Part shown: in pieces, positions 31,221 through 64,000 of the stretch | How the letters are laid out: each line of letters begins with the position of its first letter | Position numbering within the stretch: the first letter of the stretch is position 1 | NCBI GenBank assembly: GCA_973895155.1 | Contig: OZ316891.1 | Span: 4,683,708-4,747,707 of the forward strand | Direction: 5' to 3' | Origin: Marsupella aquatica | Lineage: Eukaryota; Plantae; Marchantiophyta | Length of the DNA: 64,000 bases | The notes under the pieces: generated by a model | Told to the model about the DNA's origin: nothing | Databases searched by the model: none | Seen by the model: the letters and a program-made list of their open reading frames with translations, nothing else | Position numbers and translations under genes: made by a program

Positions 31221-32011
31221 CTCGATGTAGACAAGTTGTAGCTAGAGCACTTACATCGAGTTCACATGTATAGCGATCAGCATGCATGGCCGTGGCACTT
31301 TACCTAAGGGTTTTTACCCTTCCATTTTGTAACTTTTGTACTTTTTCAGTAATGCCATTTTAATTGCGGCAGATTGGGTCAACATCACTTTCCTCCCTCC
31401 TTCAAAACCCATGAATGGTCTCCCTCACCCTCACCCTAACCCAAATACACAAAAACCCATGAAATATACATTTTGCAAAGCTTTTGAGAACCAACCCCCA
31501 TCTCAAAGAGCCACGGTGAACATATCGCAACCATTCCGAGGAGAAACGCATCGCAACACTTGCGATGTTGTCTAAATCACAACCCTAGCGAAGACTTACT
31601 CTCCACACGTTTGCGAGTTAAATGCCTTCGCAACAAAGCGGTCATCCGCTTCTCGCAATCTTACGAGTTTGTTTGCATCGCAAGTTATAGAGAAATTTAA
31701 CATCGGAAATTGCGATGTAAATGTTATCGCAACGCGAGCGATTCATTTGTTCTCGCAAAATAATGAAATTTGTCGTTTCTCAATATTTGCAAGGACAGTG
31801 CCGTTGCAACGTTGCGGAGATGTTGCGACGTATTTAGAATCGCAAGTTGCGAAGTAGTTGCGAAGGGCCGTTTGCGAAGAATTTGAGATGGGAAGTAGCG
31901 AAGACGTTGCGATGCGAGTAAGTTCGCAAATTGGGTATTTCGGATTTTGTTTCCTTTGTATGATGCGAAGGGTGGTGGTTCGCAAAAGAGGTGCATAGTG
32001 TTGTAGTGTCC

Positions 32012-37800: not shown

Positions 37801-39553
37801 GCATGCACAGGCGGTGCTGCTGAGCTCTGAGACGTTTTTTGAGAGACGAAATGTTTCTCTTGTAAGTTTTAGCTTGTTCTTGGATCTCAGGAATTGTGAG
37901 ATATGCCAACCGTCTACCCCTACTGGTTCCTCGAGTACCTCTTTTCTCTACTGCAATGTCCTCTCTAAAGGCTCTTAAACAAAAATCACCCATCCTTGCA
38001 ATACTGTAACATTCTTCACAAGTCAGATCCTGAAAACCACCAAGAAGTCGTGATCCTCTACTATAGTTCACATGCCTGAATAGTCCTTCTACCGAACAAG
38101 ATTCTTGGCCTAGAAGACACCACACCTCTGCCTTTACCCCTGGCTCTGAGTACCATGCTCCGTCAAACTTTGGCTGATCTAATAGGATATCCTTGATAGG
38201 CCTGATTACTGCACCATACTGAACTGAGTTCCGCCACAATCCCCAACACAACAACGACCAAGGGTGGGGTTTACCTGCATCTCCTGTCATATCCCCTGAA
38301 TTGCCTGAAACTCCACTGCAACCACTACCTCGAACTGTCCCTCCTGACCGGCTACTGGAAGCAATATCTCTAGCCTACCGGGTTAAGAACCCATTAATCG
38401 TCCTTTGGCGAACATCCCTCTTATCATCCTTAGGAGGTCTGCCTGACCTTCCTGACAGTACTGGTGCACCAGGCGGTGGCTTCAAACTCCTAGCCATTGT
38501 TGATAGATGATTTGTAGAGATGCAATGGGATTTCAGATTCACCTCCAGATTACGTTGCTTGGGTACCAAAGTGAACACATCGGAGCAGAAATGACACGCT
38601 ACTCTGAACCGCTCTAACTTCTCCATAGGCTCTTTCTGAACATCACCTATAATGTAGAAGGTAGGGTTGGACACAGGCTCAGATTCATTGAGCCTTTCAA
38701 CAATCTGAACGTGCATGTCAAGAGTTGCACAATCATTCAAGGAAGAAGCTGCAGCCCTACGACTGATTTCAGCAGAGTCTACTCTCTGCCCCCTGTTATG
38801 TGCCACATTTTTGGCATGCTTTGGGGTGATCAAATGCTTCTGCTTGAAATTTGTGAAACAATTAGTGACAGACACCCTATCCATAACATACTTAGATGAT
38901 CCAGAAATATTAGTGTTGCACTCACAACACTCTATCTTACCACATGGAACACCACTAGTGTCCCAAGTTTTGACTTTCCACTTGTGGTCCTCACACTTTA
39001 TGAAGGCCATATGCTCCTTCAACTTGTCAACACTAGACACCCAGAGCTTGGCCAGGTCGTTTGACATAGTTGTTGACTGGAAACTCACATGTGGATCATC
39101 ATCCACAGGTACATGCAGATGCTCATTAGGTATAGGTGAAACTGGGGGTGAAACAGGCAGAGGCAAGTCCTCCTGCCCCCATTGAAACTCAGGCTCCACC
39201 CTAACTTCAGTGTGCCACTCTCCATCACTAATGCTCTTACTCAGAGCCTCAGCATTGGAAGCATTGCTGCTTCCAACATCAACCCCCACTTTTTGGACAG
39301 GCATAGACTGTATTTTTGGGATGATGACAATCTTTCCATCACAATCATCAATGAGATTGTCTTTTTCCCAAGCAGCACGCAATCTACAACCTCCCACGCT
39401 ATCAATAAAATCAAAATCAAAGTCCCAAAGTTCCAAATCCACCATTTTCTGTCTAGCATCCGCCAAGGTCCATCCAGGGAGACAACTAATAGTCCCAGAG
39501 TGTTTTCTGGTCCCTGACTCATGGTCAGCGAGAAATACAGGCACAGGCGGCAT
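34811..39553 (-). pseudogene. DDE transposase, P-element/THAP9-like, with two N-terminal C2H2-like fingers
   Basis: LAEDET (D1), GHASDGD (D2), DQDYIHNGKKLINPL (D-x-x-H), GSDACEQFFSKVGG (E); intron ~37340-37232; one in-frame TAG at 38375-38377 and two frameshifts near 35515 and 35325; CxxC...H..H fingers IECCECN and VACHFCS. Confidence 0.7.
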
Positions 39554-42729: not shown

Positions 42730-45700
42730 GGGAAAGGCGATGAAAGGAAAGAAATCTTACCTTTACGCAATGAAATCTACTAAGATACCTACAGACGGCC
42801 TTACGCAAACAACTTCTCCTGCACAGCAGCACCAGCAGCGTTACAACTTCAGCGGCACCTTCCACAGGCAGAAAGCCGGGCAGCAAGAGCGACAACCTCT
42901 GCACATGTTTGAGCCCTCACATTAGATGTAGTGGACTGGCTATGGTTGTTATGCAGACGCAGAGGAACAACGGAGGAACATGCACAAGGCAGAGACTCAG
43001 AGTTGACAACTAATGCGAAATCGCAAAGGGAGAGGGAGAGGGAAAGGCAAACACAAAAGCAAATCATCCTCAATAGCAATGGCCACAATGCCAACAATAT
43101 CTACAATTCTAGCGTGACCTAGATAGCAAGGTGGTGAGAAGGATTACAATGTAGGGAAAACAAACCTGCTCGACAATGTCTCAACCCTAGGCTCAGCAAT
43201 AGCTTTGGGCTTTCTTGAACAACAGCGCACTACAACAACGCCAACATGAAACCACAACAACGCTAGCAACCACAACAACGCCTTCGGCCAGCTTTGGGCT
43301 CAGCAATAGCTTTGGGCTTTCTTGAACGCCAGCAACAAACCTCCCTACAAGCGCCAAACAATGCCCGACATTTACTAAACGGAATGCATCAAAGACAGGG
43401 AGCCGAAGGATAGTACCACATTGTCTAACAAAGTCATCAAATACACCATGAAACTAAGTGTTTATAAAATCCCAGTCCAGACTTCAATGTAGGGTAGCAA
43501 ATCCCGGGAGAAGATCAATGCAAGCACATCATGCAGCTCAGGTAAGGTGGTGGAAAAGTAACAAACCTGCTAGACACAAAATTCCCGACACAATAAGTGA
43601 CACAATGTCTCAAACACGGGCTTAGCAAGAGCGAGAGCGACAGGTCTGGGCTTTTGTTGCTAAAACGTCCCTTCCTCCTTTGCGATGCAGTCTCCACAAG
43701 AGTGTCCAGCTTCACACAGCCCCGCACAGTGCTTTACCAAACAAAGTATACAGTAACTCACCACTCAATCGCCCTAATGCAGAATGTACTCAGGCCACAA
43801 TTGTAGCATTCCTGTCACTCGCCAAGCTCATAAACTCCATAGCCAGATTGATGTGGCGGCTACTCTGAAAGCGCGCCCTACATAGAATATGTGCCAATCA
43901 ATATCAGCTAAAGAAAACCAGCACTCCACAGACACCCGCACAGACATTGGCAGCCACATTTAGCTGCAACCAAATAGAGGCAATGCGCGTAGAGAAACAT
44001 TAAGCAAAGCTCTGATTGGCAAGTTCAAATGATAGGAAGAAACCAAACCTCTCGCACGTTGATAGCTTCCCGCAAATAGCACCTTCAGTAACGCTTGTCC
44101 TCAACCTAGTCTCGCCACTGTATTCCTTGATCAGCCTTGACGAAGCTTGCCTTTGTCCCAAAACCTACTTGTTGCCTTCATTGCCTAAGGGAACCTACGG
44201 AGATCCAGCACCCATCAACGACCTCCACTCGAGCCTCCACTGCAGCATTTCATTCAAGGCTCCATAGCTCACAAGCTCTGTGCAGCATTGCCAAGCGGCA
44301 AGCTTCCAACTTCTCTCAAGCTTGCCCGTGGAATGCGCGGCAAGTCCCTAGTGTGTCCAAAAACCCTAAAGGACTTGGGCCCTCACTCCCGCCCTCACTA
44401 CCCCGCGCTCACGTCCAAAACAGCCTGGCAAAAGAGGATGGCCTTTAGGGTCTAGCACTATACCCACTACTAACCCTGCCCATAACCTTTCCCTTTGAAC
44501 TATCCGGCGAACTATCCCCCAAACCAAAAAAACTTCCAAAATCCTTAGTCCTAGGTAGTACTAGTGCCATTTACACAAGCTTCAATAAGGACAAGCCACG
44601 TGGACCAATGATGTAATGACGCGTGGCCTCGGGTATTACAACCCCCCTTCAAGCAAATTAAATTGGCCCCTGGATTTACATTACCCTGCACTAGTTATAA
44701 CGTATGCTACACATACAACACACCCTTGTTGGTTATAACCCAATTATAAATATTAGTCGGAGTTTGGATTAAAAGCACCATTCGGCCGTTCGCACGTCCG
44801 GCTCGTTATTAATAATGCTGGGGGCCCAGGGTGTTCGCCTAGGATTGGCAGCGGATGGCATCAGCCCATTTGCACTAGCAGGTAAGGCCCAACCATATTC
44901 ACTATGGCCAGTGGTCCTTACTAATTACAACATCCCTCCATGGATGTCCATGAAGAAGGGTCATTTGCTTCTTTCCATGATTATCCCTGGTCCTAAGCAA
45001 GTGAAAAAAATTGATGTGTACTTGCAACCATTGATTGTGGAGCTACAAAAGCTTTGGAGTGGTGTGGATTGCTATGATGGTCGAGTGCAAACGGGGGGCT
45101 TACGTCGAGAATTTAAGTTGAAGGCCATTCTTATGTGGACCATACATGATCTTCCAGGTATGAATCTTTGTTAAATTATCCCTTCCCATAGCTAGGCAAC
45201 CATACCTAGCATACTTTGTTATGTATTGAGTTAGCTAGAAGCACATATATCTTTTAATAAACTTATTTACTTATGCATGGGATATATATTTATATGCAGG
45301 GTTTGGATATATTTCTGGCCTAACCACATCAGGATATCGAGCTTGCCCAACTTGTGGACCTGATTTGGAAGGAATAGCGCGGCCAAAGTCAAAGACCTTG
45401 AGGTAGATAGTGTATATTGGTCACACCAAGTACCTCCCTCCAGACCATGATTGGAGGAGAGACCCCTTTTTATATGACACTGAGGATGGCCAACCAGACA
45501 GACGACCACAACCTATTCCAAAAGATCCTGCATATTGGAAAGAGGTATGGGAGAGAGTATCTAATCCAGATGACCCATTGCAATATGCCCGCACTAGTAG
45601 AAACCGGGGGGTATTTAGACCCCATTAAACGACTATTCAGTACCGTATAGGACTTGGAAACGACTGGGAAGGACTCTAGTCCTTTATAGGACTGCGAGTC

Positions 45701-46417
45701 GTATGTTTTGTTACTATAATCAACTGAATCCTTTATAGAACTAGTTTATAAGTCGTTTAATAGACTGGATTTTCAGTCTATTTTAGTCTTTGTGTGGGTA
45801 GCTTTGGTGAGTCGTTTTCAGTCTTTTATGGGCTGCGATGATGAGTTGTTGGGAACGACTAAAAAGGTTATGGAGGGTAGTCTTTAAATATACTTTGTGG
45901 GGTATGTATAAGTCTTTCATGTCAACTGGATATGAGTGATGAAGACCCCACTATACTACTTGGAATGAACCCACTCTTGTGCACAAATAACATATTGCAT
46001 TCATGTTTTATTGTGTACTTGGAATGAACTCACTCTATAAGTTCACCATTCATCATGTTAACATTAGAATACATAGTTTCAGAAAGCCATCTTCTATACC
46101 ATGTACACTAATATGAATTCACAGATTCAAACTTCATAGACTACAAATGAGGTCACAAAGTATTCCTCTATACCATACACAGTAATACTGAAATGATAAA
46201 ATAGATTCAAGTATCATAGACAATCACCATAGAGCCATAGTTTGACATCAATCACTTGTTTCATACATACAGAATTCAGAAATATCAATGTCACACACAA
46301 CGTCTCCTTCATCCTCTTTACCAAATGGAAAAATTGGTACAAATATTTCTTGGATCTTTCCAAGGCAATGTCAAAATGTGACACAATTCACATGATGCTA
46401 TCTACACTTGCATTCAG

Positions 46418-49400
46418 TCACTGTAGACTAACACACTCTGATGGCCAGAGCACAAGAGATCCTACTGCATTTGCAATTATTTCCTGAGGTGGATCATCAT
46501 CTCTATTCGGAAATGGCAAATTACAATCAGATACAATCACTGTAGTCAACAACACTACTACATGGTCATCCGGGACCACTTTGCCATGGAATTTTGCATG
46601 ATCCGGTTGCAAAATGCCTGTACCCACACATACTTGCGAGTCATCCTCCCATGATAGAAGATTATGGACTGGCTCTGCTGTGGCTATCACCTCCACCTTA
46701 CCCTGGCTGTTTTTCTTGGCTTTCCTGGGTGGCTTATACATGACATTATTCATACCTTGGTTGCGAGTCATGACTTTGGCACGAGTGTTTTGTGCTGGTG
46801 ATCGAGAATTGGCTACACTCTTCTTCAAAGAATCTGCATCCATATTTGACACTTCTGATTGTGTAGCAGGATTTCCCTGCGACATCATCTCAGTATCTGC
46901 CAACATTGTACTTGCTTCAATTGAAGCATCTACAATCTTACTTGCATCCAATGTTGCTCCCAAGTTTCAACGTCGCTTCACCCTACTCCCACTTGGTTGA
47001 GAGTCTGTCAACTCTGCATCAACTACAATTCAGTGTCATGTCCAACATAAGTCAATCACTCATCACATGTGCTAAATGTACATGTCACCAACCACAAAGT
47101 TGTCACTATCTCCTTACCATTATGAACAGCCTTCTTCCCCTTCTTTGCCATTGCCATATGCTCCATGTCTGCTTCTGTTGATCAATAAACACACCACAAT
47201 ATTCAGGTTGAATCTATTAACCACTGAATTGTTGCCCAACATTCATATAGAGGAATTTAGAGCATCAGCTTACCTGATACCTCCTTGGCTATGGTCACTG
47301 AGGCACTGGGCACATCTTCTTCATTATTGCTCTTTGAATCACCTGATACATCAATCATGATGTCACTTCAGATCCCAGTTCATCCAACCAGTTCTTACAG
47401 AAAAGATTACCTCCAACCGGCTTAAGCTTCACAAGACTCCATGCACTTTTCAAATGTAATGTACTGGATCATAGCAGGTTACCTGTCTCAGCAACCTTCT
47501 TGCCCTTCTGCTTACTGATTACAGGGTCCTTCTCTGCCTCCACTCTTCCTGCATTCAAACCATTCACTCAATTCATGAAAACTTACTTCTAACATTTGAA
47601 CATAGAAAACAATGAACAATGGGCCGGTGTCATTTCCATACCTGTGTCAGATTTGCCAATTCCCTTTTTTGTTAACAAGGGCACACTTTGTACAATGTTG
47701 CCCTCATTGTTTGGTTGGGAACCACCCAATTTTTCAATCACAAGCTTGAAATTAGATTCCAATGATGCAAGAAGGTTCGCTACAGATGCCTCCACAATAT
47801 CCAAACGATCAGCCAATTTACTTTCCACTCGAGGGAGTCCACACTCTAATGACTTCAACCGTTCACACATCTCTGTGAGAGTTGTAACAGTTCCCTGTCA
47901 TAACACAGCTTACATATCTCAGATAACTGTCCCCAAGAACTGGTTGCTTACTTCCTACTACATTTCTTTTTGATGCTCAAGGCCAAATAGTCACAGAACA
48001 TACAGAATTACAACATAATCACCTGTTTGGAAGTTACACTTGTCACCTCACTCCTTTGTTTCATGAACTCCTCTCTCACTTCTTGTGCTGATGGTTCTTC
48101 ACCTGTCAATTTCTTCTGCAGTCCACATCAACATACATATGAATGAAACCAAGTGTTGATTGTCAATGAAAATGTAATAATGGTAGCAAGATGATAAGTT
48201 TGAGGCTTACTATCAGGCATGTCACTGCCTTACCAATTGTTCTTTCACTGGAGCATAACTTCCTCTCCCAGCCTGTGAAAGGTGTTTCACTTTGCCTCGA
48301 GCATTTGACATCAGTTCACTCTTGCTCTGTCCAGCCTCCGACATGAACCCTTTGATTAACCGTGTCCATTGATCCAGTTCCAATGATGGGGGTGGTGGCA
48401 TTCTCCTGTTAGAACCATTGTCTATCCACATCCTTTTCAACCTATGCCTCTCTTGTTTCAAAATCCTCATTGCATAATCTGATATGCAATCTTCAACTGG
48501 GCCCTTACCATCATTACCAACATACTCCCACCGTTCAAGAATGTCCTTGCAGATAGCAGCCCAATCAGCTTTGTTCTGACTCCTAAACTCTGTAATGCTC
48601 AAATCTAACCAACGCAATACTTCTCCTCTTAGGTCAGAATGCCAACGGTTCTTACCATCACATGTGGGAGTTATCCAACCTTCGGAATTCACTTCTACTT
48701 TACCAAATTTGTTACTGTCTCCTGCCTTGGTACTCCCTGAAGCGCTACTAGGTGTCCCTCCACGGCCTGGTGTCCCCCCACGGCCTGGGGTCCCTCCACG
48801 GCCTGATCTCCCCCCACGGCCTGGATTGCATTGTCCAAACCTCCCTGGAGTCCCTGCACATTTACAGGATCCATTTACAGTCACTTACATTAGGTAAGTA
48901 TGAATCATAAATCCCGCTGCCAAATATACAGTGGACTTCAGAGCAATTCTGCAATGACCAAGTTACCTCTCCCTTGGCGCATAGATGGTTCTGGACCACC
49001 TGTCCTATTGCTTTGTCTTGATGAATTAGGGGCGTTTCTCTTGCCTGTGAATGATTGCCTCCTATCTGAACGTGGATGGCCTTTGTTGTTTTCGTGATTG
49101 TCCCAATCAGAGTCTGCATACCAACAGGTACATGCCACACTCATGGACCTGTAAGATAAACTCTTTGCCCTAGCTACACATCAGATAAGTGCATATTGAG
49201 CTAAATCTCTACTACCATCACAAAATCACTAGCACAAGGCACTTACTTGTCCAATCATCCTCCTCACCTTTCCATTGCCCTCTGTACCCGTCTCTACCAC
49301 GCTCTAGGTGTTCATATTCATCCCATCCATCTTCTGCTCCATCATAGTCATCATCATAATTATCAGGCGTCCCTTGCCAATAACTCTGGCTCCTTCTAGG

Positions 49401-49589
49401 GTATGGATTATGTGATTTCTCTCTAGCTGCCCACCTACCTGGGACTTGATGAGGGCCCTGTGCATCTTGCACAGGTGCATTTTTTTGTGAGCCCCCTGCA
49501 TCTGGGTCTCCATCCATATCCAATCTTTCCTCTTCACCCCACTCTCCAAGCCCCATGTCTGTCTCCATGTCATCACCCTCTTCCCCCAT
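46418..49589 (-). CDS. Element C TnpA/PTTA-like multi-exon gene
   Basis: Exons include QERHRLKRMW...PPPSLELDQWTRLIKGFMSEAGQSKSELMSNARGKVKHLSQAGRGSY (Transposase_24-like) and C-terminal VGTGILQP...FHGKVVPDDHVVVLL...LPFP...NAVGSLVLWP (DUF8039-like); exact exon chain not fully resolved. Confidence 0.75.
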
Positions 49590-49766
49590 AGCTTCTGCAC
49601 AGCACCCACAACCAAACAGGGAGAATCAGCACACTAAATTCAAAGTATCAATCAATTTCATGCATATCCAACTATCCTAAACATCATTCCAGGCAGCAAT
49701 TCCCGTTCTGTGACTCTGTGCAGGTAGTCATCCTCAACCTCATACTTGCCAATCGCCAGCTGTTGC

Positions 49767-52700
49767 CTATTGCAAATCATCAACCTCATCATATTCCATT
49801 TGCCCAGGTTCATCATATGTCTCTCTCAATGTTAAGGGGATGTAGTCAGTCCCTGCCCGAGTTGGAAGTACAGTCTCATGACTAGGATGCTCGAATGCAG
49901 CATGGTCATCCAAACTGAACTCTACTTTACTTCCATCCATCCGCCTGTTCCGTGCTTGGCTATGGCATACCACCCTCCAGCCATGTGACTCCTCCACATC
50001 TGTAAAGAAAGCCTGTTCAACTTGGCTAGGGAAAACAAAAGGCTCAGACCATTCTGGTACTCTAGACCTAAAATTGGCCAACAAGAACCCATCATGATCA
50101 CGCTTCATGGTGGCCCTTGGTCTCTGCCACTCTGATTTCACCCATGATCCCTTCATCAATATCACTGGGACACTTGTGTTACCATAATTCAACACCCAAA
50201 TGTCGGTCAACTCCCCCACGTAACCCATCTTCATCCACCCCCTCTGTTCTTCAGAGGTTCTCTGCTCAAACACAGAAATCAAACCACAATCATATGATAC
50301 ACAATGGTCACCCTGCTCATCCCTCACTCGATAATGATTTCCATAAGCTCTCATCCGTTTGTAGGTCAGAATAGACAATCGTGGTGGCACAGATAGAAGA
50401 TACAAATCCTTCTCCATATCTGGGTGATGTCTACTATGCTCTCAAATTGTCACCCGAATCCACTGCTCGAACTGTGGGAAGGGATCCTGCTGCCCAGAGT
50501 GTGCAGCTTTTTGCATATCATATTCCCTGCAATATGAGGTACAGGCATAGTTAGGTCTAAACAACACATGACAACCTAAGATCACCCTTGGAACAGACAA
50601 GAAGCATCACAACAAAGGCAAGTCAATTCAATCACTCACCTCCACCATGGTTGCATAGGCTCTGTGTTTGCCAGCACATATGAATGAGCCTTGTCTCGAA
50701 TCGCAACAGGCAGTTGAACAGCACGTCCCACACCTTCAACAACCTCGCCACTCACTCCATCATCTTCACCAGATTTCCAAACTCTTGTCATAGCTTCACC
50801 AGACCCAGCCATGTACTCTGTTAGGAATCCCAACGTCTCATCCTTAATGTACCCCAATGCCATGGAAGCCTCTGGCCTGTAGTATGTTCTCACATGACCT
50901 TTCAACAACTTCATGTATCGCTCCATAGGGTACATCCATCTGGTACTGACTGGCCCATACTGCCCTAGCTCTTCTACCACATGGATTAGGAGATGAGTCA
51001 TAACATCAAAGAAAGCAGGGGGGAAGTATATCTCCAAGTCACAGAGGACATAAGCAGCATCCTGCTTCAACTGCTCCAATCCTTGGGGATCCCACACTTT
51101 CACACATATACGGCGAAATACATTGCACAGTCGAAGAATGACATTACGGACTGGTTTCTGCATGAGACCTCTGAGGCATAGGGGCAGAATGTGCTGCATC
51201 AACACATGGTAGTCATGTGTTTTCATACTGCCAAGTTTATTCTTTGTAATATGCTTCTTGAAGGCACCAGCATAGCCAGAGGGCACTTTCAGACAGCTCA
51301 ATCTATACAAGAATGTCTTCCATTCATCCTGTGTGCACACATAGGGAGCTTGGAACTTGAGAAGTACATTGGGATTGCTTGCATGGGGCTTCAACCAAAG
51401 GTGAGGGCGAATCCCCTTCTGTTGCATATCAGCTCGAACTGCTCCTGTATCTTTCTCACCCGACAAGAACTTCAGCAAGCTCTCACAAATATTTTTCTCA
51501 ATGTGCATGACGTCCACATTGTGTTTGCTGGGCTCGAATTCCTGCACTCCACAAAGCAAAGAATTCAACAACAGAAACACTAATTAACCACATAGGAGGA
51601 TTGTAACCAACATCAATCCACCATTGCTCCAATCTAAAATTGCAATCATATAGGGGCTGGAGGCTAAGTACATTACCCTCCAGTACTCCAACTCCAAGTC
51701 CATCAAGGTCTGTCTTTTCACACCGTGTTTCACCACTGGATCCTCAGGTTCTCGATCAGTGGCACTTCTCTTGTCCCAATCAGCCTTCCTGGCTGCCCAC
51801 CTCAGGACTTGCTCTCTGGTGACCCTCTGTGGTGGGCCACGAAGCTCTGTTTTGTTGTTGAAGTGTGCAATTTGAGACCGTGTGTGCCTGTAAGGATGAT
51901 CAACAGGCAGATACCTTCTATGCCCCTGAAATTTCATACTGTGCAGGGCATGCGACCACTCACTTGTCACATTTTTCCCACATGGTGTGCACCCCACATA
52001 GCCCTTTGTCACTCGTCCAGATATGATGCCATGGCCTGGGTAATCTGCTATATCCAGCAAACAAATTACATGCAGTCTAAAGGGGCTGGTTCGAAGAAGC
52101 CCCTTCAGAACATCATGGGTTAACATCCCTTCTATCCACAAAGTCTTCCACTCTTCCACTGTTGGAGCCAACATGATATCTATGAATTGCTCGGTCACAG
52201 AAGCTGGTCCAGGGATTAACAACACCATCATGACAAAAAACCTCTTTGTAGTCATCCATGGGGGAAGGTTGTAATTTAGCAGCGTAACCGGCCAACATGA
52301 ATAACGGTTGTTTTTGTCTCCAAATGGGTCTACTCCATCCAGTGATAGACCAAATCTAAAGTTCCGCTTCTCTGCAGCAAACTGTGGCCACCTCTCATCA
52401 ACAAATTTCCAATGGTTGGAATCTCCAATGTGACGCTGCAGGCCATCACTGCTCTTGTTATCAGGAGTCCATGTCATCAGCTTGGAAATGGCAGGGCATC
52501 TAAACAGACGTTGTAGTCTAGGAATGAGAGGAAAATGACGAAGAACCTTGGCAGGGTGTGTACATTTCCCTACATTCTTGTACCTGTGCTTACCACAATG
52601 AGGGCATGTCAATTTATCTGCATGCTCTTTGTGAAAGAGAACACACCCATCAGGGCATGCGTCAATAGACACATAGTTCAGCCCAAGGTTAGACATCAAT

Positions 52701-53467
52701 TTCCTAGCCTCGTACATATTTTTTGGAATTGAATTACCATCTAGTAACACATTTCGGCGCAGGAAGGTCAACAACTCTGTCACAAATATATTGGGAACAT
52801 TGTGATTGCCACAGATGTTCAACAACAACACGACAAAACCCAACTTGGAGCAGTTCGACCCCTCGTAGATAGGAATGCAAGCTTCTTTGATGTGTTTTGG
52901 GCCCCCAAACACCCACTCCCTCTCTGCTGCACCTTCCCCAATGTCAAAGTCAGGTTCAGCTTGGCCGTCGCCAATGTGTGGCTGCGGTTCATTGTCCTCT
53001 TCTGATTCCACTGTGTCGTAAAAAGCATCAAGGTCTTCAAAAATCTCTTGAACCATTCTTGGGACATCCATCCCACCGTCCTCAGTGACTGCCTCTCCAT
53101 CTCCATCTTGGTCATCCACGTTCTCATGTTGGACCCCAGGACCATCCTCTGCACAGTCTATGTCCTGCTCTACGTAGTCTCTATGCCTAGCTGTATTAGA
53201 ATCCACAAAGTCAGCTCTCCACTCTTCATCAGGGGAGTCTTCTTCTGCTGGTACATTCCAAACCCTCCACCGAGGGTGCCTTTCATGCCGCAGCAGGTGA
53301 AGGTGCACAGTGTTCAAACTCAACGACTTGAATCCTTGGCACTGTGTGCATGGGCATCTCATCCTCCTACTCCTACCTTGGGCGGCTCGGGCTTGTTCAC
53401 GCATCCACAATTTAGAATCATGATGCCTAATCCTAAATGGGTTGTGAAGAGGCAACCTTGGAGCCAT
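49767..53467 (-). CDS. Element C TnpD transposase (exons ~53467-51678, 51541-50640, 50526-49767); one probable CGA>TGA stop near 50443
   Basis: RCPCTQC, IDACPDGCVLF, RFGLSLDGVDPF, SCWPVTLLNYNLPPW, DIADYPG, HNVDVMHIEKN, MKTHDYHVLMQ, FPPAFFDVMTHLLIH, RWMYPMERYM, EPFVFPSQVEQAFF. Confidence 0.95.
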
Positions 53468-53793
53468 CACTATACACACGCACTCAGCACCCTGTCATTT
53501 TATTATGCAAGTGAAAAATACACTTCCTGTTAAGGATTTCACCCCCGACTGTACTTGCCAAAATACGTAACGTTCCAAAAAAACAAAAAAACAAAAAATA
53601 TAGGTGCCTGAGTCATGTACCTATTCTCAAGTGAATGAGACAAAATTCCTAAATGTTTGAGGGTGTCAACTCCTCCGCTGTCCTCACATGTACTGCCTCT
53701 GCACGTACATCCATGACCATATCAGAGTCCAATCATGTATAGTCATAGACACAGGTGCCAGGTGCGAGACCGGTGTGAGATGTCCTCATCTTA

Positions 53794-54363
53794 CTACCAC
53801 ATCAAATACGGATACCAATCCTGTTGTCGATGCCACTCAACCCTGAGGTACTCAGGCATGTACATTAAGTCATCAAGGTCTAAACCCTGCTCATGCCATG
53901 GTGGTCTTCGATCCGTGCCTACAAGCAGTGGCAGCAGTGCCCTCCATGGTGCACATGTTGCTACCAAATCCCTCCACTGGGTACTAATTAGTCTATATTT
54001 GCAGATATCTTGTGCGCCAGACACCACAAGAACCCTCGGCCAGACATGTGTAAGAACTATATCATCTGCCAAATCAGGCAACAAGGAACCACCTACAGCA
54101 TCGTGCTTGTCTAACTCATCTGCTGAAAAGTAAATGTCCTCTTCCGACTGTGCATCCTCATTCACCACAGCATTCACAACACATCCAAGGTCTGCAGGCA
54201 TTATCTTGGATGGAGCTACACTCTGTCTGGTTACCAATCCACACAAGTAAGCCCAAGCAGTAGCCATGCACGATGCAACCCGTAGGAGGACCCTACATAG
54301 GGCCTGACGGTCTGGAAGAGGCAGCATACCCACCAAAGTCTTCAGCCAAACAAAGCCCAGCAA
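53794..54363 (-). CDS. F-box-like small protein (cargo of C)
   Basis: SLLPDLADDIVLTHVWPRV...DICKYRLISTQWRDLV fits the plant F-box pattern LIPGLPDD...R.V.K.WR.L; first ATG at 54327. Confidence 0.6.
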   Translation of the reverse strand: MLGFVWLKTLVGMLPLPDRQALCRVLLRVASCMATAWAYLCGLVTRQSVAPSKIMPADLGCVVNAVVNEDAQSEEDIYFSADELDKHDAVGGSLLPDLADDIVLTHVWPRVLVVSGAQDICKYRLISTQWRDLVATCAPWRALLPLLVGTDRRPPWHEQGLDLDDLMYMPEYLRVEWHRQQDWYPYLMW

Positions 54364-54503
54364 GTAGATTCACAGTCACACCCCACGCAGCAGGAAACAA
54401 CAATCACTTCAACTGCGACCAACCATGACAAGATGAGTTAGTTCAAGGATCACATTTATTACAAAATTGTGATTTATACAAAAATATGAGGGACTCCTAC
54501 TCC

Positions 54504-55367
54504 TCACTCTCTCCCACCTTTGCTAAGCATACATCTCCGCTGAATCTTGGAGGGCCAGGCCTCAAAAATATCAAAGTCCCAAGCATTCTGTCGCTTCCCT
54601 CTAGCTGCTGATTCCAGAAGCCAATCAGGGGAAAGCACCCAAAGATTGTTGTTCATGACAAAATCACGCACTGTTGTCTTAAAGAATTTTCTGCATATTT
54701 TCATGTATGACAGACCTACAACATGAGTGGAGGTTTCTGTTAGACTCTCCTCCACTGTCCCACCTAGCTCAACAACTATAGACTTGTACAATCTGCACTT
54801 AGTCTCCCCAATTCCTTCTTCTGCAAATACCACACTGAACCCCTTCATAATGGTATTTCTCTCCTTGCCATGCTCATTCAATATAGCATCTGCACGCATA
54901 GGATGGTGTCCTATGTTGACAACAGGTCCATATTGGACAGAAGCAAAGTTGGGTTTCTTTGCCGCTGCTTCATAGGCTTCCTTTTCAGCCAAAGCCTCTG
55001 CAGTGGCCTCCTCACTCTCCCACAACTCATATTGCTCAGTACTCTGTACACACCTATGTTTAACAGAATCGGTCAGCCAAGAGACTTCAACTACTTTTAG
55101 ACCTTGGTTGGTAATGGCAGAATCAATGAAGGACCATGACCACTTGTTCATCACATCCAGCCATGTCCCCGCAACAACATGTGTAGTCTGTGGAGTGATG
55201 TCCTTGACTTCAGTCCCATGGAACTCTGAGAATCGTTTTTGTACGATTGGCCAACTCACTTGGGTGAACCCATAGTGGCCAGGAATCAAAATGGCTTTGA
55301 TTCCAGCCAACAGAGGTGGGTGGTCAACCTTTGTACGTTTCCTAGAGGCCATGTACACACGGACCAC
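54504..55367 (-). CDS. Tandem double-BRCT protein (cargo of C), resembling the plant Pol lambda BRCT
   Basis: Two repeats: LAGIKAILI...THVVA...VVEVSWLTDSV...EQYEL and MKGFSVVFAEEGI...ELGGTVEESLTETSTHVVG...LSPDWLLESAARGKRQN; ATG at 55352. Confidence 0.85.
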   Translation of the reverse strand: MVRVYMASRKRTKVDHPPLLAGIKAILIPGHYGFTQVSWPIVQKRFSEFHGTEVKDITPQTTHVVAGTWLDVMNKWSWSFIDSAITNQGLKVVEVSWLTDSVKHRCVQSTEQYELWESEEATAEALAEKEAYEAAAKKPNFASVQYGPVVNIGHHPMRADAILNEHGKERNTIMKGFSVVFAEEGIGETKCRLYKSIVVELGGTVEESLTETSTHVVGLSYMKICRKFFKTTVRDFVMNNNLWVLSPDWLLESAARGKRQNAWDFDIFEAWPSKIQRRCMLSKGGRE

Positions 55368-55950
55368 CTAATCATTGCAGACCGGAAGATAATGCGTTCA
55401 CCTGATAATCGGAGGGCCCTTAAAATGCTGCATTTATAACTTGGTCCAGTCTAGTCGTCTGGTGAGTCTCTGCTCCGATTCCAAACGGGAGAAATATTGG
55501 GACAAACGTACTAGACACCTGCAAGCATGCACCTCATAGTTTGAATATGTGCCTTCACAATATTGAAGGTGACAAGTGCAATTGTTTTGTGATGCCACAT
55601 ACAGATGTTGTAAATGGGCAGACATTCAATGACAATACAAAATGTTGGTACACTTTAAGGGAATTCTCGCAAATTAAATAGCCTTGTAACTTATATGCTC
55701 ATAATGAGAAGTCCTGATTTAATTTAAGCAGTGTCATGTAAGTCGTGATCAAAATGATTGCAGAGTTAAAAAAGTTCCTAGAAGGCTTAAGGGGAGTTTT
55801 TGAAGGCATGTACCCAGGAACAAGTAATGAACTTAGGGTACTTGTTGCCTAAGCATCCTCTCCTACAGAGGTCCTTCTTCTCAAAATTGGAATGTCTGCA
55901 ATCTCCAAGGTATCCACATCAGGTGCACTATGCATGTACATTATTCAGGT

Positions 55951-56631
55951 TCAAAGCCAAGAAATGTGATCTCTCATGGGAGTGTGCAAAGTAGGATCTA
56001 TGGCATGGCGATGACAATAGAAGATCCATCGATCAACACCATGTGCAGAGTGATCATAGATGTGTCTGTCACAAGCATAGCCTTCTGCTTGACGCTCCTT
56101 CAAACAATGAAAGTGCCACATGGTGGGACACCTAACACAGTGGACTATGTCCACCCAGAAATCTTCATCGTGCTGACCACATGCCTTGCACTTATGAAGT
56201 GGGCAAGCTGTGGCAAGATCGGGCAAACATGAAAAACAAAAGAACCTCACACAATATCTGTCAGGGCATTTCCTAACAAGTGGTGGAGCATCAACAGAGC
56301 CCTCATAAGACCCCAACTTCCCACACTGTGCACACTTAGCCTGCTTCTCCAAACAATCAGTGCACATCCAGCCTCCCTGGTGTGCTGACGGGAGGCCCAC
56401 CCCTGGACAGTTGTTTTCTGCAGCAAGGTCAGACTCCGGGTTGAGGTGGAAATGCCTCATGCAAGGGCCCTCACATATGGCTAAGCCACCACCATCATCA
56501 CAAATGGCACAACAATGAGCTGCCTTCTGGAAAATCTGACTTGCGGAGAAGTTACTACCATCTGGCCCAACTACACCTGTGTTGCTCACCTCTGTCCCCC
56601 ACTTCTTGGCTCGGATTTTAGGGCGTGCCAT
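55951..56631 (-). CDS. Stand-alone EDM2-like composite PHD-finger protein (cargo of C)
   Basis: CAICDDGG.L.ICEGPCMRHFH...CTDC...CAQCGKLGS...KC....C.RFF...CPLHKCKAC...HCVRCPTMWHFHCL...IFYCHRHAIDPTLHTPMRDHI follows, from memory, the EDM2 PHD region including its LIYC.EH.IDEEL.TP.RDH end. Confidence 0.85.
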   Translation of the reverse strand: MARPKIRAKKWGTEVSNTGVVGPDGSNFSASQIFQKAAHCCAICDDGGGLAICEGPCMRHFHLNPESDLAAENNCPGVGLPSAHQGGWMCTDCLEKQAKCAQCGKLGSYEGSVDAPPLVRKCPDRYCVRFFCFSCLPDLATACPLHKCKACGQHDEDFWVDIVHCVRCPTMWHFHCLKERQAEGYACDRHIYDHSAHGVDRWIFYCHRHAIDPTLHTPMRDHISWL

Positions 56632-57300
56632 GCCTACGCCTGAGACAGATAGTACAATTTAGCAGAGTGCACAGACAATACAATTTAGTGTAGTGTACAA
56701 AAAGTACAGTGTAGCATATAGACTAGAGTGGCAATTGCTACTGCAATGAAATGTTCACACACATGTGCAGAGTAGACATACTTTTTGGTTTGTTGAGCCC
56801 ACACTAAAAACTGATCCCCTCGTACAATAGCTCCACCTACACCTCAATTTTGTGGCTATGATTCACCAAAGGAGATCTGCAACAAGATTTAATGCATTTG
56901 AATCACATATAACAGTCGTGACATGTAAAACAGGCATTTTTTGAACAGGATTGGTATCAAGCAGTGTGATCAGGGTTGTAATTTATACATCCTAAATAGG
57001 CTATGATAATGAATGAGACAAATAAGTTAGGCATAAATCACTTTTTCCAGGTTATCACATGGCCCATTAATTCCAGTCTTTGAAAGGAGACTTTTAAGTG
57101 AGCTTGCTAGCCTCTTAAATTAGGATATTGTACTTAGTGCAGCCATAATAGGATAAGTTATGTACTGTTGACCGTAAACCCTGGACCCAAAATTGCTCAT
57201 AATTCAAAATCTTAAGTAAATATCCTCTCTGTTCAAGTCAAAGTGTTAAGTTATAGGTCAATGGTCTCTGGTCTGTGCATGCGGTGTGACAAGTGGTCTT

Positions 57301-57861
57301 CTACAGCGTGTGATCCAAACATGTGTAGACACCAAAGTGACCGGTGGTGGGGTCTGGGAGGGCAGGACAAGTGACATCGCCAGGCACACTGCAGGATGGC
57401 GAGTGGTTCCAGATGATACATTGTGCTCTGTGAAAAAACCGACATCCAAGAGAACGGTCATCCAACTCTAGGCCAGAAGCCCTATAGGCAGGACAGTCAT
57501 ACTGGCAACTGTGCACACACCCTTGGGCCCTAATTTGTGGCGGGTCATGTACGAGAGACAATGTTGGGAAGGGTGGAGAAGCAGGTACAGGGCGGCTATA
57601 GTTATTCCTGGCAACAACTGGGTACTCAAAGTACCATGCAGACTGGGCTGGAAGGATCCCAAGTCTGACATACTCAAGGCGCAACATGTCTGCCTTGCGT
57701 GCAAGCCGCACATGTTCAGCATTGCGGGTCCTCACCATAAGTGTTGCTTTTGTGGAGTGTCGTGTGTTCACGTCCTCTGATAAGCACCTTCGATCAGCAA
57801 GGTGAGCAGGAGCTGTACTTGCCTCACCAACAGCAACCAACCTTAAATTATCAGTTCCCAC
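57301..57861 (-). CDS. Hypothetical Cys/His-rich protein (possible cargo of C)
   Basis: 186-codon ORF co-oriented with the other cargo; C-terminal GCVHSCQYDCP...GCRFFHRAQC..NHSPSC; no family recognised; start codon uncertain. Confidence 0.35.
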   Translation of the reverse strand: MGTDNLRLVAVGEASTAPAHLADRRCLSEDVNTRHSTKATLMVRTRNAEHVRLARKADMLRLEYVRLGILPAQSAWYFEYPVVARNNYSRPVPASPPFPTLSLVHDPPQIRAQGCVHSCQYDCPAYRASGLELDDRSLGCRFFHRAQCIIWNHSPSCSVPGDVTCPALPDPTTGHFGVYTCLDHTL

Positions 57862-59280
57862 TCACTGTGTCATTCCATTGGTTCCAGCTAGGGGTCACAA
57901 TGTAAACATAGCATGAAACACTCCTAATCAACTTGCTTACAAACTACAATATCCAGAAAGAGTGAAAGTCTCACCCTCCAGTGAGCAGCAGAGAGGTAGT
58001 TCATTGGATGTGTTGATGTGCAGTTAAACCTCCACTATTGCTTACTTCCGGTGTATGCTGCTTAGTCGGAGACATATTAGTAGCAGCAAATTGCAAATAA
58101 TGGCCATAAGCAAACCGTGAGAGTTTGCAGAATGTTACGACAACTATTCATCCATCACAACAGTGCTCCACAGGAATGAAACCAAGCAAAATTTGGTGAC
58201 CTCGGCCAATGACAAGGCCAATGTAGTTCACAATCCTTGACCGATCAGGATATGGATTGGAATTACAATTAGTCAGCTCTTCTTCTTCTTCTTTGTTTTC
58301 TAACTCTGGGCAAATGAGCATGACCAGGGAATTCTCTGAGAAATAGAAGTGCACAGGGAAAATGAAATTGGCTCATTGAGTTGCGCAAGACCGCCCACTG
58401 CAGCATAAACAAACTCATGAAGTGGCAGAAAGGATAGCGTCGCCACAAGCGCAAAATCCCGACAGGTTTAAGCTGCAAAAAACTAACCCATCCAAATGTG
58501 ATTGCAATGGTGTTGAGGTCGTCTATTCACCACCCCACTCCACCGTGGGAGCATTGGGCACAAGGCATGTTCGGATCCAGGGAGGAGCAAAATAGTCATG
58601 TGAAGCAACAAGTGTGGAGAGACCAATAAGTAAACAAAAATAGGGAAGAACAATGCGGTGATCATGAGCAGCAGGAAACAAGGAAGTTGATTTGGGAGGG
58701 ATTGTAGGGACAGAGCTTTTGGTGGGCTTGGCTGCGCGTTCATATCGGAAGATAGATGCGAGAGAGTGTGAAGAGGGTGGCAACCAACAAAGGCAGTGGC
58801 AAGCAAGCAAGCAATACACGATGATAGCCGCAATCGGCAATGGCGGTGGGAGGCAGCAATAGGCTAAATGACTATTCAGTACCAATCCGCAGCTCGTCCG
58901 ATGAGAATGAGTGACATGAGGAAAATGCCAACACACTGACCCACTACCAAGAAGAAAGAAAACCAATCTCAACCACCCTCTATCATCAATGACAGGACAT
59001 ATATTCAAAAATCCAAGCTGCAATTGACGGAAACAATAACATAAACAGAATTCTGAACATAAACTGCTCATGAAGCTTTCGGGATCATATATTCCAAGAG
59101 CAAATGTGAACATGCCAATATATGAAAGCTCTGGCATATAGGGCATTGCATTCCATAGAGACGTCTGCACCAAAGAGCTTGGAAGCAATTGCCTATCTGC
59201 TGGAAGCAGGAAACATATATGTAAATCCCAAGCCCATACTACATTGGAGATGATCAGCTCACTCAGACAGACATTGCATT

Positions 59281-59420
59281 TTGATTAACCAAATGTAGCA
59301 GGCTAGCAGAGGGACGAAGGATAGGGCCAACACTAATGCATAGCAGTGAACAACTATGATTAACCAAATGTCAGTAGCAGGCCAGCAGAGGGACGGAGGA
59401 TAGGGCCAACACTAATGCGC
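59281..59420. repeat. ~75-bp tandem duplication
   Basis: TGATTAACCAAATG...AGCAGG.AGCAGAGGG.ACG.AGGATAGGGCCAACACTAATGC twice. Confidence 0.8.
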
Positions 59421-62400
59421 AGTTGTGAAAGACTGACAAATAGAAAGCAAACGAGAGCTTCAAATATAGAACATCAAACCTTCAGCAGCGGTCAATGGGC
59501 TTTGATTCACAGGTCGCCTGGCTTGGTCCCTTGTCGCAGCTCGCCCAGCTCCACAACACCGTAGACAAGGAGTTGGCTGGTCCAATTTCCACCATGCAGC
59601 GTTAGCAAAACTGCAATGCTTGATCTTCGCCCTCCGCCCTTTGCCCGAACCCCAAAATAGACCTCAAAGTAGAAAGCCAGCAAAGGGTTGAGCAGAAATC
59701 CCTAGAAAATCCCGCCTCTAAAGTCCATTGCTCGTGGTTACAAATGATGGCAACGGAATATTCGGGCAACCCAACAGTTGAACTGACCTCAATCACACCT
59801 GCACCTGGTTGGCAGCTCCGCAGACACTAATTGTAGCTCTAGTTGAAGACATCATTTGAACAGCAAATCAGTCACAGCTCATGAATCCGTTCAGACTAGC
59901 ATCATGGGTACTACGTCGGAGCACTGCGCAAGAAGCCAGGAAAAAACTGCAAACATGGGGACCCACAGGCAAGAAATCTGGACCTCCGACACAATCTGGA
60001 AATCCTTTCGCAAACAACTGGCCCTCTCCTCAACAACTTGCGATGGTAGTAGCTCGCAATGGTAGCAGCTCGCGATAGTAGCTCCCTTCAACAAGCTTGG
60101 TAGTGCGATAGGAGCAACAACTTACAGAGAAGACAGTGACCTCCCCTATGAGACTGATTGAAAGACCTCAATACAATTACTGAAGCAGGGATACAGAACG
60201 GGGAGAAGCCTTTCGCAGTTTGGGACGGCGAGAAGTGTGAACACTTAGGGCAGGGCCCGCAGGAAGGTCACTCAGTCCGAATGAGCCACAAGCTTATCGC
60301 CCAAAACCACGCAAACCTGAAGTTGAAATTAGCACTATGAGGTAGCAAGCTACAAAATAGCATTTCCCACATTCTTAATGCATGGCATCGGAGCTCATTC
60401 CGCCTAGAAAACCAAAGCCACTACCAAAACTAACTTGCAAATGGAAGTTTGGACTAACCAGGGTGATTCAGGGCAGTTCAATGTCACTATGGCAGGTGCA
60501 TTGCTGCTCGTAGCTGCAATGTACCTTAGCGCTCCCGGTCCCTCCACGGCTGCAACTTCCCAAGACCGGTCGGTCCCAGCCAGTCAGTCTTCTCTGAATC
60601 TTGGTGCGCCCACGTTGTCTCAATCCGAAGCTGTCAGCTCTCAGGCAGGAGACAAATCTCCGCTTGCCTTCGCACCAAAAGCTGTCACTGGCCTCAAGAG
60701 CCTCTAAGGCAATGTCCGCAATGCCTCAATGTCCTTACCACCTCACGACTGTCAAGGTCCCAAACCAGCGCAAACCACTTGCTGAACTCCTTTGTCCAAA
60801 CAATTGTAAGGGGCATGCAGGTAGAACTGTCAAAAGCGCTCGCAGGAGCGGATGGCAACAATTGACTACAATCGCCTCCCAGCTTCCCTCGCAAAATGTT
60901 AACCCTAAACCCTACTCGTATGCTCCACTCATAGAAGCAAAGCACAATGTTCTGTCGCACAATGGGGCCCGAACACATGGGCGCAAGTACTCGATAGTTC
61001 CCTTCACAAAAACCCAATAATCACCTGATGACCAAAGCACACTCACCCTAACCCAATACTTAGTGCAAGCAGTCATGTAAGCTCGTTTCCGTTGAGGTGA
61101 CCCGTTGAGCATAATAAGTACGTTTGCGCCAGAGTGTTAGGCAACACACAAAACTAAAGAGGGTTAAGGATAACTTTAAATAAATCCCTTTGGTGACAAA
61201 GTCATGGCCACTTAATTAGTTGTGGGCCCCCCTAACCCTCCCCCCCCCCCCTTGTGGAATTAATCTTGGATCAAAAGGCACCATCATTTACACTCAAATC
61301 AATCAAGTTGTGGACTGTTCATTATGTCAATTAGTGCCCATGACCCTGTCAAAACAACACTAGTTGGCAATGCGGAATATATCATGGTGTGGGAGTTGTA
61401 CCTAGCTAGGGTTATAGTGATGCATTAGTTCCGGTTCTGGTTAGAAACCACCCTAAGCCCTCCAGTACAGTTGTACCCTAAGTTATGAAAAGTACCCGTT
61501 ACATGAATATTTATGGTACAATGTTAGTTAAGGTTGGTGATATATACAAGGCATGTCCTTAAGCACTTAGGCCCAAAAGTAGGATGTCGCCCGGTCCTTC
61601 TTAAGTATACTCTTATCATGAACCCTTGTAAGACTTTGTCTTATACTAGTCTTTGTGTGGACCTTTAGAGTGATTCCAAGAACAAAACCCATGATGTCCT
61701 AGAGTGTTCACCCTTCACAAAGTAGCAAGGTTACTTTTCATAGTCTTTAACTAAACCGGAAAACACTCAAAGTCTTTTATAGTCTTTAACAAAACCTTGG
61801 CAATGGGTGCAAGTCATTTAAAGTATGGAAGAAGGACTTAGTGGGCTTAGTCCTATAAGGTATGGTCTAAATTACCCCGGTTTCTACTAGTGCCGGTGTG
61901 GCATGACTTGTTTGTCTGCATTGTCACAACTGCCTTATTGGGCTGAGATGCCACTTAACCATTTATTTGACCCTATGCACATTGAGGGAAATGTTGGGAG
62001 GTCCTTGATTTGCCACCTATATGGAGAGAAAGACAACAACTGGAGAGAGAGTTGTGAAGAGATGGGGATGCATGGCCCTCATGGTTTTTGGCCATCTATG
62101 GATCCCGATAATGCCCCCCTTACTATTCATCCTCCTTGGGTTTTGACACGAGGTGAGCGGACCGAGTTTCGCAAACGCATAGGGTCTATGCGATTTCCTA
62201 CAGGGTATGGTGCCAATCTTCGCAAGGCATTTGGTGGACTTGACTCTCCAAAATGGCCAGCTTTCTTGAAGACCCATGATTATCATCGCTTATTGCAACA
62301 TGTTATTCCAATTGCTATTATTGGATTGGGTAGTGAGGATCTTCGTGATGCCCTTTGGTCGTTGGGTAAGTTGTTGAGATGGGTGTGTCAAAAGGAGGTG

Positions 62401-64000
62401 AACGAGGATGAGGTTGCAGCAATGGAGGTGTTTGGAGTGGAGGTTGTGTGCAAACTTGAAAGGGCCCTTCCTCCTTCATTTTTTGATGGTCAGGTTCATT
62501 TTCTACTACATCTAGTGCGTGAGGTTGGTATTGCAGGCCATGTACATTGTCGTTGGATGTACTGGGTAGAGCGGTACATGGGAGTGATGAAGTCCTATGT
62601 TTCAAATCGCGCAAGGGTGGAAGGTAGCATTGTAGAGCGTCATCTTGGAGCAGAGAGCATGTTTAATTGTACAAACATTATTGCTACACTTGATTCAAAT
62701 GCTCCAAGGGGGTGGATAGATGAGGCATCAAGAGAAGCAGACTATGAGGATGACCGTTTGACAAGTGCAAAGGGAGAACGGCTTCTTGACCCTAGTGAGC
62801 GCACTAAACTCACTGCATTCATGTTGTATAACTCTCCAGAGATTGTTGGGGAGTGGACCACATTTTATGAGGAGGATAAGCACAATAGTCGACGACCACG
62901 CTTATTTCCCAAATTCCACATGTACATGAAGGGGAAGTTGTTAGAAGTGGATGCCTTGGTGGCTGCTGGGGAGAGTGTATCACACTTCCCAATGGTGACT
63001 GATAAGTTGCGCACCTTGGTTCATGGACCTCTACTTACAGTTACAACCAGGACTGCCATGTGGTCCAAGGGGAGACACTTTCGTGTGGAACGACTTGATG
63101 ACAAGAGGGCAGCTACACAAGATTGTGGTGTGATGGGTTGGTTCACCCAGGATTTTGTAAGTAGCAGATCTGACACAAATCCCATCCGTTCTACTATAGC
63201 TCACTATGGAAAGATAGAGGAGATCCTTGTTGTAAAATACCATGCGCATACAACATTGGAAGAGGTGGTGCTGAAGTGCAAATGCTTTCGGATGAATCTT
63301 GTTGGCCACAATCGAACATGTGAAGAGGATGCTTGCGGCTTCACACGACTGAAGATAGGGGCTGTCATCAGCTCAAATTGGAGGGCCTCAGATCCTTTTG
63401 CATTTCCGCATAATCTTGAGCAGGCATTCTATCTCCCTTATCCAGATGATCCTGAGTGGTCCATTGTAATGCCTTACATTCCACGATCCCGATCCATAGT
63501 CCAAGAACAGCCAAATGTAGTTGTTGTGGAAGATTTGGAAAATGAGAACAACTAGCTACTTAGGAATTTCATGGTAAAAGCTAGGTAGCTAGCACTAGCT
63601 AGACCTAATTAATGACCACTTCCCTCCATGTATTGATTTTTTCGGCATATATATGTTATCTACATTGTCATTACCATTTTTTTGTTGCATGTTACTTTAC
63701 TTATATATACCACTTAAATCTCTGGGCTCTAGCTGTGGCTATATATTTGTGCTTTTAATATATATGAAATGAAAGCTTCCAATTCATTTCAAGTTGACCC
63801 TAGTTGAGTTCCCACATACTTCAAATGGAAATGGAGTCAAAAACCTATCGGAAACACAACATGCCTTAATTAGAAGCTAGGAAGATGATAAAACCCTCAA
63901 AAAACCCCGGCTCTACAGAAAACTGATATTTCCGATATTAAAAGAAACGGAACTCATATGCCATACTACAGGTATCGGGAAACTTTTCCATCTTTACCAC

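Follow-up and report, generated by a model that had tools for sequence, protein, structure and literature searches.

Red-algal Plavaka transposons, which belong to the EnSpm/CACTA lineage and are 17-19 kb long, carry a three-gene cassette, PAG1-3 (10.1101/2025.02.11.637652), and the En/Spm elements of Chondrus, of 16-20 kb, have four to five open reading frames (ORFs) (PMC6431247). Anti-silencing by plant transposons has been demonstrated in few cases, namely VANC, TnpA and a rice CACTA microRNA (PMC12973397, 10.64898/2026.08.24.746577). A survey of active plant elements of 2-12 kb, which would miss one of 16 kb such as that described here, reported one case each of a SET and a BRCT-type accessory domain among its 775 CACTA clusters, and PHD and F-box domains only in Mutator-like elements (MULEs) (PMC12973397). 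We analysed a stretch of 64,000 nucleotides from the liverwort Marsupella aquatica (contig OZ316891.1, positions 4,683,708 to 4,747,707; hereafter the window), containing a CACTA transposon, element C, in which four ORFs stand upstream of the transposase gene TnpD. They code for a Cys/His protein, an EDM2/NSD-type PHD protein, a pair of BRCT domains and a likely F-box protein, and conservation of their sequences makes it probable that they are selected accessory genes of the element. No report of this four-gene array was found in the literature searched, with Repbase Reports, subscription papers and bioRxiv supplements outside our reach. The features of element C, in window coordinates, are the following.

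45592-61892, minus strand: CACTA element C, 16,301 bp, delimited by terminal inverted repeats (TIRs), a CCG duplication and an empty-site joint
61875-61892, minus strand: TIR at the 5' end of the genes, with the CCG target duplication at 61893-61895
58836-61655, no strand: internal segment, likely present in only a minority of copies (in runs X2, X3 and X5 its summed contig depth is 1-8% of the median for TnpD)
57301-57738, minus strand: ORF 1, 145 aa, new Cys/His family with 6 short homologues
55951-56631, minus strand: ORF 2, 226 aa, stand-alone EDM2/NSD-type triple PHD finger (Pfam, profile and alignment)
54504-55352, minus strand: ORF 3, 282 aa, two BRCT domains (Pfam BRCT above cut-off)
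53794-54327, minus strand: ORF 4, 177 aa, likely F-box (3 homologues, sub-threshold F-box matches)
49767-53467, minus strand: TnpD transposase (Pfam Transposase_21 E 7e-58, DUF4218, DUF4216)
46418-49589, minus strand: likely TnpA-like gene, of several exons (Transposase_24 E 0.002, below cut-off)
45592-45609, plus strand: TIR at the 3' end of the genes, with the CCG target duplication at 45589-45591

A first-pass annotation of this DNA had described four same-strand ORFs lying within the TIRs directly upstream of TnpD, with spacers of about 140-700 bp, and the ORF coordinates and the TIRs bear this out. The array consists of four ATG-started ORFs followed by TnpD, and the distances from stop to ATG are 669, 598, 176 and 326 bp, close to that estimate. 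The region 53468-58800 has 4 ORFs of at least 145 aa, and more than two were obtained in none of 500 simulated sequences with matched trinucleotide make-up. None of the accessory ORFs has internal introns. For all four, short proteins that stand alone and are of about the same length were found as homologues, with 30-81% identity and usually a shared start or end, the searches for ORFs 2, 3 and 4 covering near lengths only, with fused forms outside their scope. Of ten homologues looked up, Logan contigs supplied nine and JGI/IMG the tenth; every one is either unnamed or 'hypothetical' and lies on a contig of 1-3 kb. A VANC-type domain was not found by the Pfam scan among the four ORFs. A further ORF, 58523-59146, was not counted as cargo, having no Pfam match and lying at the edge of the low-depth segment.

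Both TIRs are identical at 18 of 18 bases, begin with CACTA and are flanked by CCG on each side. The empty site (joint 45588>61893) was found in contigs of three of the four sequencing runs compared. These four come from 13 listed runs, 11 of which contain part of the window and 4 half or more of it; the runs derive from two studies and one of them may be the source sample, and the contigs falling on element C number 5695 in run X3 and 14116 in run X2. The thin cover of some bins in X7 and the minor shares of X6-X11 were left out of the evidence, and none of the 13 is an RNA run, which bears neither way on expression. TnpD-like pieces lie on either side (44827-45457 and 61951-63498) and are the halves of a TnpD gene from a different CACTA, into which element C is inserted. 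Short CACTA TIRs, a 3-bp target duplication and TnpD are all features of the CACTA/EnSpm group, and subterminal repeats of 10-14 nt occur in both arms, with 2-3 copies per family, counted with no chance control. The ratio of observed to expected CpG is 0.2-0.6, and the depletion suggests that the DNA of the element is methylated.

For TnpD, removal of two GT-AG introns leaves the inferred exons 53467-51677, 51541-50640 and 50526-49767, and the model of 1150 codons contains a single internal TGA, at codon 926 (50442-50444). The first-pass annotation had contrasted an intact cargo with this broken transposase; the stop is real, but the contrast is weak, because length alone would place a single lesion in TnpD 58% of the time (3453 vs 2502 nt of cargo). 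In the TnpA-like region the sub-threshold Transposase_24 match comes from the ORF 48222-48470. The plant-type transposase domains, together with the EDM2-type tail of ORF 2, point to a land plant as the likely host.

The identification of ORF 2 as EDM2-like, already made from the letters, is confirmed by several comparisons. Three Pfam NSD-type PHD models match it with E-values of 1e-5 to 6e-3, below cut-off, and its family profile matches NSD2 at E 8e-11. Against the PHD region of a 1305-aa metagenome frame (L002), which we take to be EDM2-like, ORF 2 shows 29% identity, including the C-terminal tail past the third finger; identity with EDM2-like proteins overall is 28-30%, and 24 of the 31 Cys/His of the L002 region are kept. 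Five short homologues were found among 107 candidates, with 38-81% identity, and in 4 of the 5 the C-terminal end is aligned with that of the window protein. In this family 24 of 38 Cys/His columns are invariant, against 29 of 188 others (p=6e-9). All ORF 2-type PHDs share a deletion of about 21 residues relative to the EDM2-like proteins, and a tree that has a distant outgroup and two long branches sets the six cargo-type PHDs apart, as a single clade (100/100), from three EDM2-like metagenome rows. The AlphaFold model has a predicted local distance difference test score (pLDDT) of 51, and Foldseek returned no matches under E 0.001, its top rows being PZP and NSD PHD domains, with the NSD PHD-C5HCH rows at E 0.003. 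A metagenome scan gave 9 loci with 26-46% identity, all distant EDM2-like or generic PHD sequences, and no orthologue of the cargo protein was found among these loci, in viral contigs or in prokaryote genomes. EDM2-like frames of 216-380 aa that hold the PHD region only occur in the metagenome loci L001, L003 and L005 (267-380 aa for those at L001 541-1660, L003 137-1280 and L005 203-1000), a separate stand-alone form.

ORF 2 thus resembles EDM2 in its triple NSD-type PHD and in having the same C-terminal tail, and differs from it in length (226 aa vs ~1300), in the absence of the flanking domains, in the ~21-residue deletion and in a changed residue before the first Cys. It lacks the N- and C-terminal domains of a full-length EDM2 of ~1300 aa, and its stop is conserved. 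Host EDM2, a member of the ASI1-AIPP1-EDM2 complex, binds chromatin marked by H3K9me2, over which it suppresses proximal polyadenylation (PMC7529245).

ORF 3 matches Pfam BRCT at E 6e-14, with 52.5 bits against a cut-off of 21.3, in two stretches, and its two repeats are 24% alike. Homologues formed one cluster among 771 candidates, of 294 aa and 61% identity. The double BRCT call therefore holds, whereas its proposed role as an adaptor for non-homologous end joining is a guess, because the best matches, to LIG4 (DNA ligase 4; E 0.006), BRCA1 (0.04) and TdT (0.29), are weak. Both repeats may also resemble the BRCT domain of plant Pol lambda.

ORF 4 has a hydrophobic helix at its N terminus and a short tail that is conserved; three homologues with 52-55% identity were found among 116 candidates. 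Its description as F-box-like leans on these relatives: two of the three give Pfam F-box matches (E 0.0011 and 0.0034; 19.3 and 17.7 bits) close to but under the cut-off of 20.5, and ORF 4 itself has no Pfam match. An F-box cluster scores 0.91 for ORF 4 in the Atlas, ranking third after two unnamed clusters, F-box proteins account for two of five weak PDB rows (E 0.6-0.9), and the AlphaFold model has a pLDDT of 41. Together these matches suggest that ORF 4 is likely an F-box protein.

The Cys/His ORF is real, but its start is 57738 and not 57861 as first annotated: five of the six homologues have a Met in the column of 57738, and a common 1-nt insertion at 57757 lies within the extension, so the longer version was rejected. 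A length-free search gave nine matches, six of which are short full-length relatives with 30-55% identity; the long repetitive proteins P0014, P0016 and P0018 were left out of the family. The conserved features are a CxHSC-x3-C core, an NH and a distal Cys, and 6 of 15 Cys/His columns are invariant, against 11 of 130 other columns (p=0.003). No match was found in Pfam (best E 0.04), PDB or the Atlas. The pattern suggests that the product is likely metal-binding.

Presence in one copy only, which the first-pass annotation had said would count against its reading, was not what we found. Relative to the TnpD median, the summed contig depth of the array bins is 0.4-3.5 in X3, 0.4-1.7 in X2 and 0.15-0.98 in X5, a measure that is not copy number and cannot rank the genes; the stretch 58.8-61.6 kb stands at 0.02-0.08 in X3 and X2. 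The array is thus a family trait and not a one-off capture, because the contigs of these runs cover it about as deeply as TnpD. In X2, the joints 51091>57312 and 46922>57561 tie ORF 1 to the TnpD and TnpA regions in other copies. Among the 12 of 119 indels listed, nine fall within 53468-58400 and none in the cargo ORFs, which make up 51% of that stretch, and two fall in TnpD exons, each of 3 nt. This gives a hint that indels avoid the cargo ORFs, among the 12 listed and with spacers that are AT-richer. The internal segment 58836-61655 has no recognised ORFs and is likely a later, copy-limited capture, providing a natural neutral control.

Acceptor-like AGs lie 8, 15 and 24 nt 5' of the ATGs of the PHD, BRCT and TnpD genes, respectively. 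By a home-made score, these three rank in the 97-99th percentile among 1160 AGs, similar to the two TnpD intron acceptors, and an equally good site precedes 2-6% of 449 ATGs. The pattern would fit separate mRNAs with introns in the 5' untranslated region (5'-UTR), made from one promoter or several.

Other elements in the window carry an accessory gene in the same position.

21360-32008: CACTA element B, 10.6 kb, with a TCC duplication; TnpD and a SET ORF are minus-strand, and a likely TnpA-like gene is plus-strand

In element B, whose TIRs match at 9 of the first 10 bases, an intact SET-domain ORF (26317-27147, minus strand) lies directly upstream of TnpD, and in a third CACTA, element D, an intact SET ORF (32232-32954) precedes a TnpD at 33064. 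Both SET ORFs are above the Pfam cut-off and are 45% alike. The TnpD proteins of these two SET-type CACTAs are ~32% identical to that of element C, and therefore two distant CACTA lineages in this genome place chromatin genes in the same slot. The third CACTA (32232-33945 plus 16211-21359) was likely interrupted by element B, and no ends were found for it.

Elsewhere in the window, 34811-39568 holds long minus-strand frames (187, 607, 345 and 397 aa) with stops between them and no Pfam match, which we take to resemble a P-element-like transposase. A 1.66-kb non-autonomous CACTA with an AAG duplication and 24-nt subterminal arrays in inverted orientation lies at 13264-14922, and a near-perfect 550-nt fold-back (8116-9232; arms 98-99% complementary, 12-nt centre) is a possible source of hairpin RNA or a miniature inverted-repeat transposable element. 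The sole clear host gene seen is at 195-1438, presumably exons of a clathrin heavy chain gene.

What the four accessory genes would do for the element is an even call: we give about equal weight to their being used to work around host silencing and to their not being so used. In the mechanism we propose, one promoter in the 5' arm would give separate mRNAs, with a 5'-UTR splice acceptor in front of each ORF. Histone H3 tails in the heterochromatin of the element itself would be the target of the EDM2-type PHD, which, without the rest of EDM2, would be a decoy or adaptor that keeps the region of the array and the transposase transcribed; the transposase, 8 kb from the 5' end and behind four genes in methylated DNA, would profit from such a reader. 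The F-box-like protein would bring the host SCF ubiquitin ligase to a restricting factor, in parallel with viral F-box suppressors, which remove host factors. At the break left by excision, the partner of the BRCT pair would be a repair or checkpoint protein of the host, and the Cys/His protein would likely be a metal-binding partner or a sequence-specific anchor. A bolder generalization, which we find doubtful as a whole, is that CACTA families of this plant lineage carry enzyme-free modular counter-silencing operons, with one promoter, a new zinc-binding anchor, a captured EDM2 reader that would keep transcription running through the element's heterochromatin, a viral-style F-box that would destroy a host silencing factor and a BRCT adaptor for repair of the cut, their sister families having a SET methyltransferase in that slot. 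With four small, cloneable and conserved genes in a high-copy family, the subversion of silencing by mark reading and host-factor degradation becomes directly testable, and ORF 1 adds a protein family with no known domain.

Several observations weigh against a selected, counter-silencing set. Disruption across copies, suggested at the outset as a sign of neutrality, is seen in part: the listed indels spare the cargo ORFs, but broken copies exist, with frameshifts in ORF 4 and deletions of the array. A 43-nt frameshifting deletion in ORF 4 has a depth of 8173 in X2 against a bin mean of 182046, a few percent, and of 42.7 against 80 in X5, about half; X3 has a second frameshift-sized replacement in ORF 4, and in some copies deletion joints remove ORF 1 or most of the array. 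Among the top 40 of 1159 substitutions, three of the four in the cargo are non-synonymous and mostly private to this copy, the listing being too short and biased for a pN/pS ratio. The distant homologues, known as proteins on contigs of 1-3 kb, are not linked to transposons or to a gene order, and protein databases favour the listing of intact ORFs. By the same home-made score, no strong acceptor was found upstream of the ATGs of ORF 1 and ORF 4. An Asp two positions before the first PHD Cys has a role in H3 binding in AIRE; this position is His in four of the six cargo-type PHDs and Asp in two of the three EDM2-like rows, and H3 binding by the cargo PHD may have changed. The isolated PHD is moreover not unique to element C, given the L001, L003 and L005 frames. 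In BRCA1-type tandem BRCT domains, a Ser/Thr-Gly and a Lys of the first repeat form the phospho-peptide pocket; in the first repeat of ORF 3, by a weak alignment, these places hold Tyr/Phe and Ser. Finally, TnpA alone reactivates Spm elements in Arabidopsis (10.64898/2026.08.24.746577), and therefore extra anti-silencing genes are not required.

Selection may also have acted on transposition itself, silencing not being the target, which we regard as unlikely. Here the PHD would steer the transpososome to a type of chromatin, as the RAG2 PHD steers RAG1, and the BRCT pair, above its Pfam cut-off, would manage donor-site repair. In favour of this are the motifs common to RAG1 and EnSpm transposases (PMC12730594), and the insertion of element C in a CACTA TnpD gene and of element B in a third CACTA region; however, nesting in repeat-rich DNA is also expected from survival bias, the SET-type elements are nested too without such a PHD ORF, and the F-box fits poorly. 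Distinctly unlikely, in our view, is that each ORF is a mobile accessory gene in its own right, passing from one transposon family to another or being of use to the host, through small-RNA camouflage or co-option, with an order that is accidental and no working set. The depths of the families do differ, ORF 1 and the PHD reaching 30-38% identity and the BRCT pair forming one cluster, and different types of transposon exchange Plavaka accessory genes and TET/JBP genes (10.1101/2025.02.11.637652, PMC12730594), but all four ORFs point the same way and lie close together at a single position, and other copies too have ORF 1 joined to the core.

A neutral origin, as Pack-type host fragments amplified along with a successful master copy, we hold to be very unlikely. 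Capture by Pack-CACTAs is known and mostly ends in pseudogenes (PMC13317346), broken cargo alleles do exist, and family-wide depth by itself is expected of a hitch-hiker. What the neutral account leaves poorly explained is that identity to the EDM2-like proteins compared, none of them from this species, is down to 28-30% with the zinc ligands kept, that relatives at 30-81% retain length, start and end, and that the ORFs are intronless and spared by the listed indels. The earlier suggestion that these are not random Pack-type fragments is thus supported, because the array is family-wide and the ORFs are conserved as stand-alone proteins across deep divergence. Least credible, to the point of being extremely improbable, is that splicing joins the ORFs, as exons, to one another or to TnpD in a single fusion protein. 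The acceptor-like sites 5' of three ATGs and the use of alternative splicing by Spm elements (PMC13547354) speak for it, but every ORF starts with an ATG and ends with a stop of its own, at positions conserved in the homologues, and the acceptors lie upstream of the ATGs.

We return to selected accessory genes as the preferred reading, and turn to the place of element C among the known systems. It resembles VANDAL/VANC in having accessory protein of presumed host chromatin-regulator origin, but VANC belongs to the Mutator superfamily and is one sequence-specific DNA-binding protein with demonstrated activity (PMC13317346, PMC13547354), and element C is probably not a VANC system. The same review places captures of ULP1, credited to CACTA elements by the first-pass annotation, in MULEs (PMC13317346). 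With Pack-CACTAs it shares host-derived sequence within CACTA TIRs (PMC13317346), and differs in having its own TnpD and likely TnpA-like genes and a cargo of old, intact, intronless ORFs for conserved proteins; element C is probably not a Pack-CACTA. Like the fungal EnSpm, Plavaka and KDZ elements that bear TET/JBP and the HarbingerS and MuDR elements that bear SET, it is a complete transposon with captured chromatin genes, whereas the TET/JBP and SET systems involve single enzymes, in fungi and oomycetes (PMC12730594), and a nearer parallel is offered by the SET ORFs in elements B and D. The likeness is closest to red-algal Plavaka, also a large EnSpm-lineage element with a fixed accessory set, one gene of unknown function and a proposed chromatin role; there, PAG2 is an adenine methylase plus SET and PAG3 a 2OG oxygenase with a ParB-like domain (10.1101/2025.02.11.637652), in contrast to the non-catalytic reader and adaptor modules that element C carries on a canonical CACTA with TnpD and a likely TnpA-like gene. 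Accessory cassettes on EnSpm-lineage elements are therefore already known, and what is new in element C is reader and adaptor content without enzymes: an EDM2-derived reader, a BRCT pair, a likely F-box protein and a new Cys/His family.

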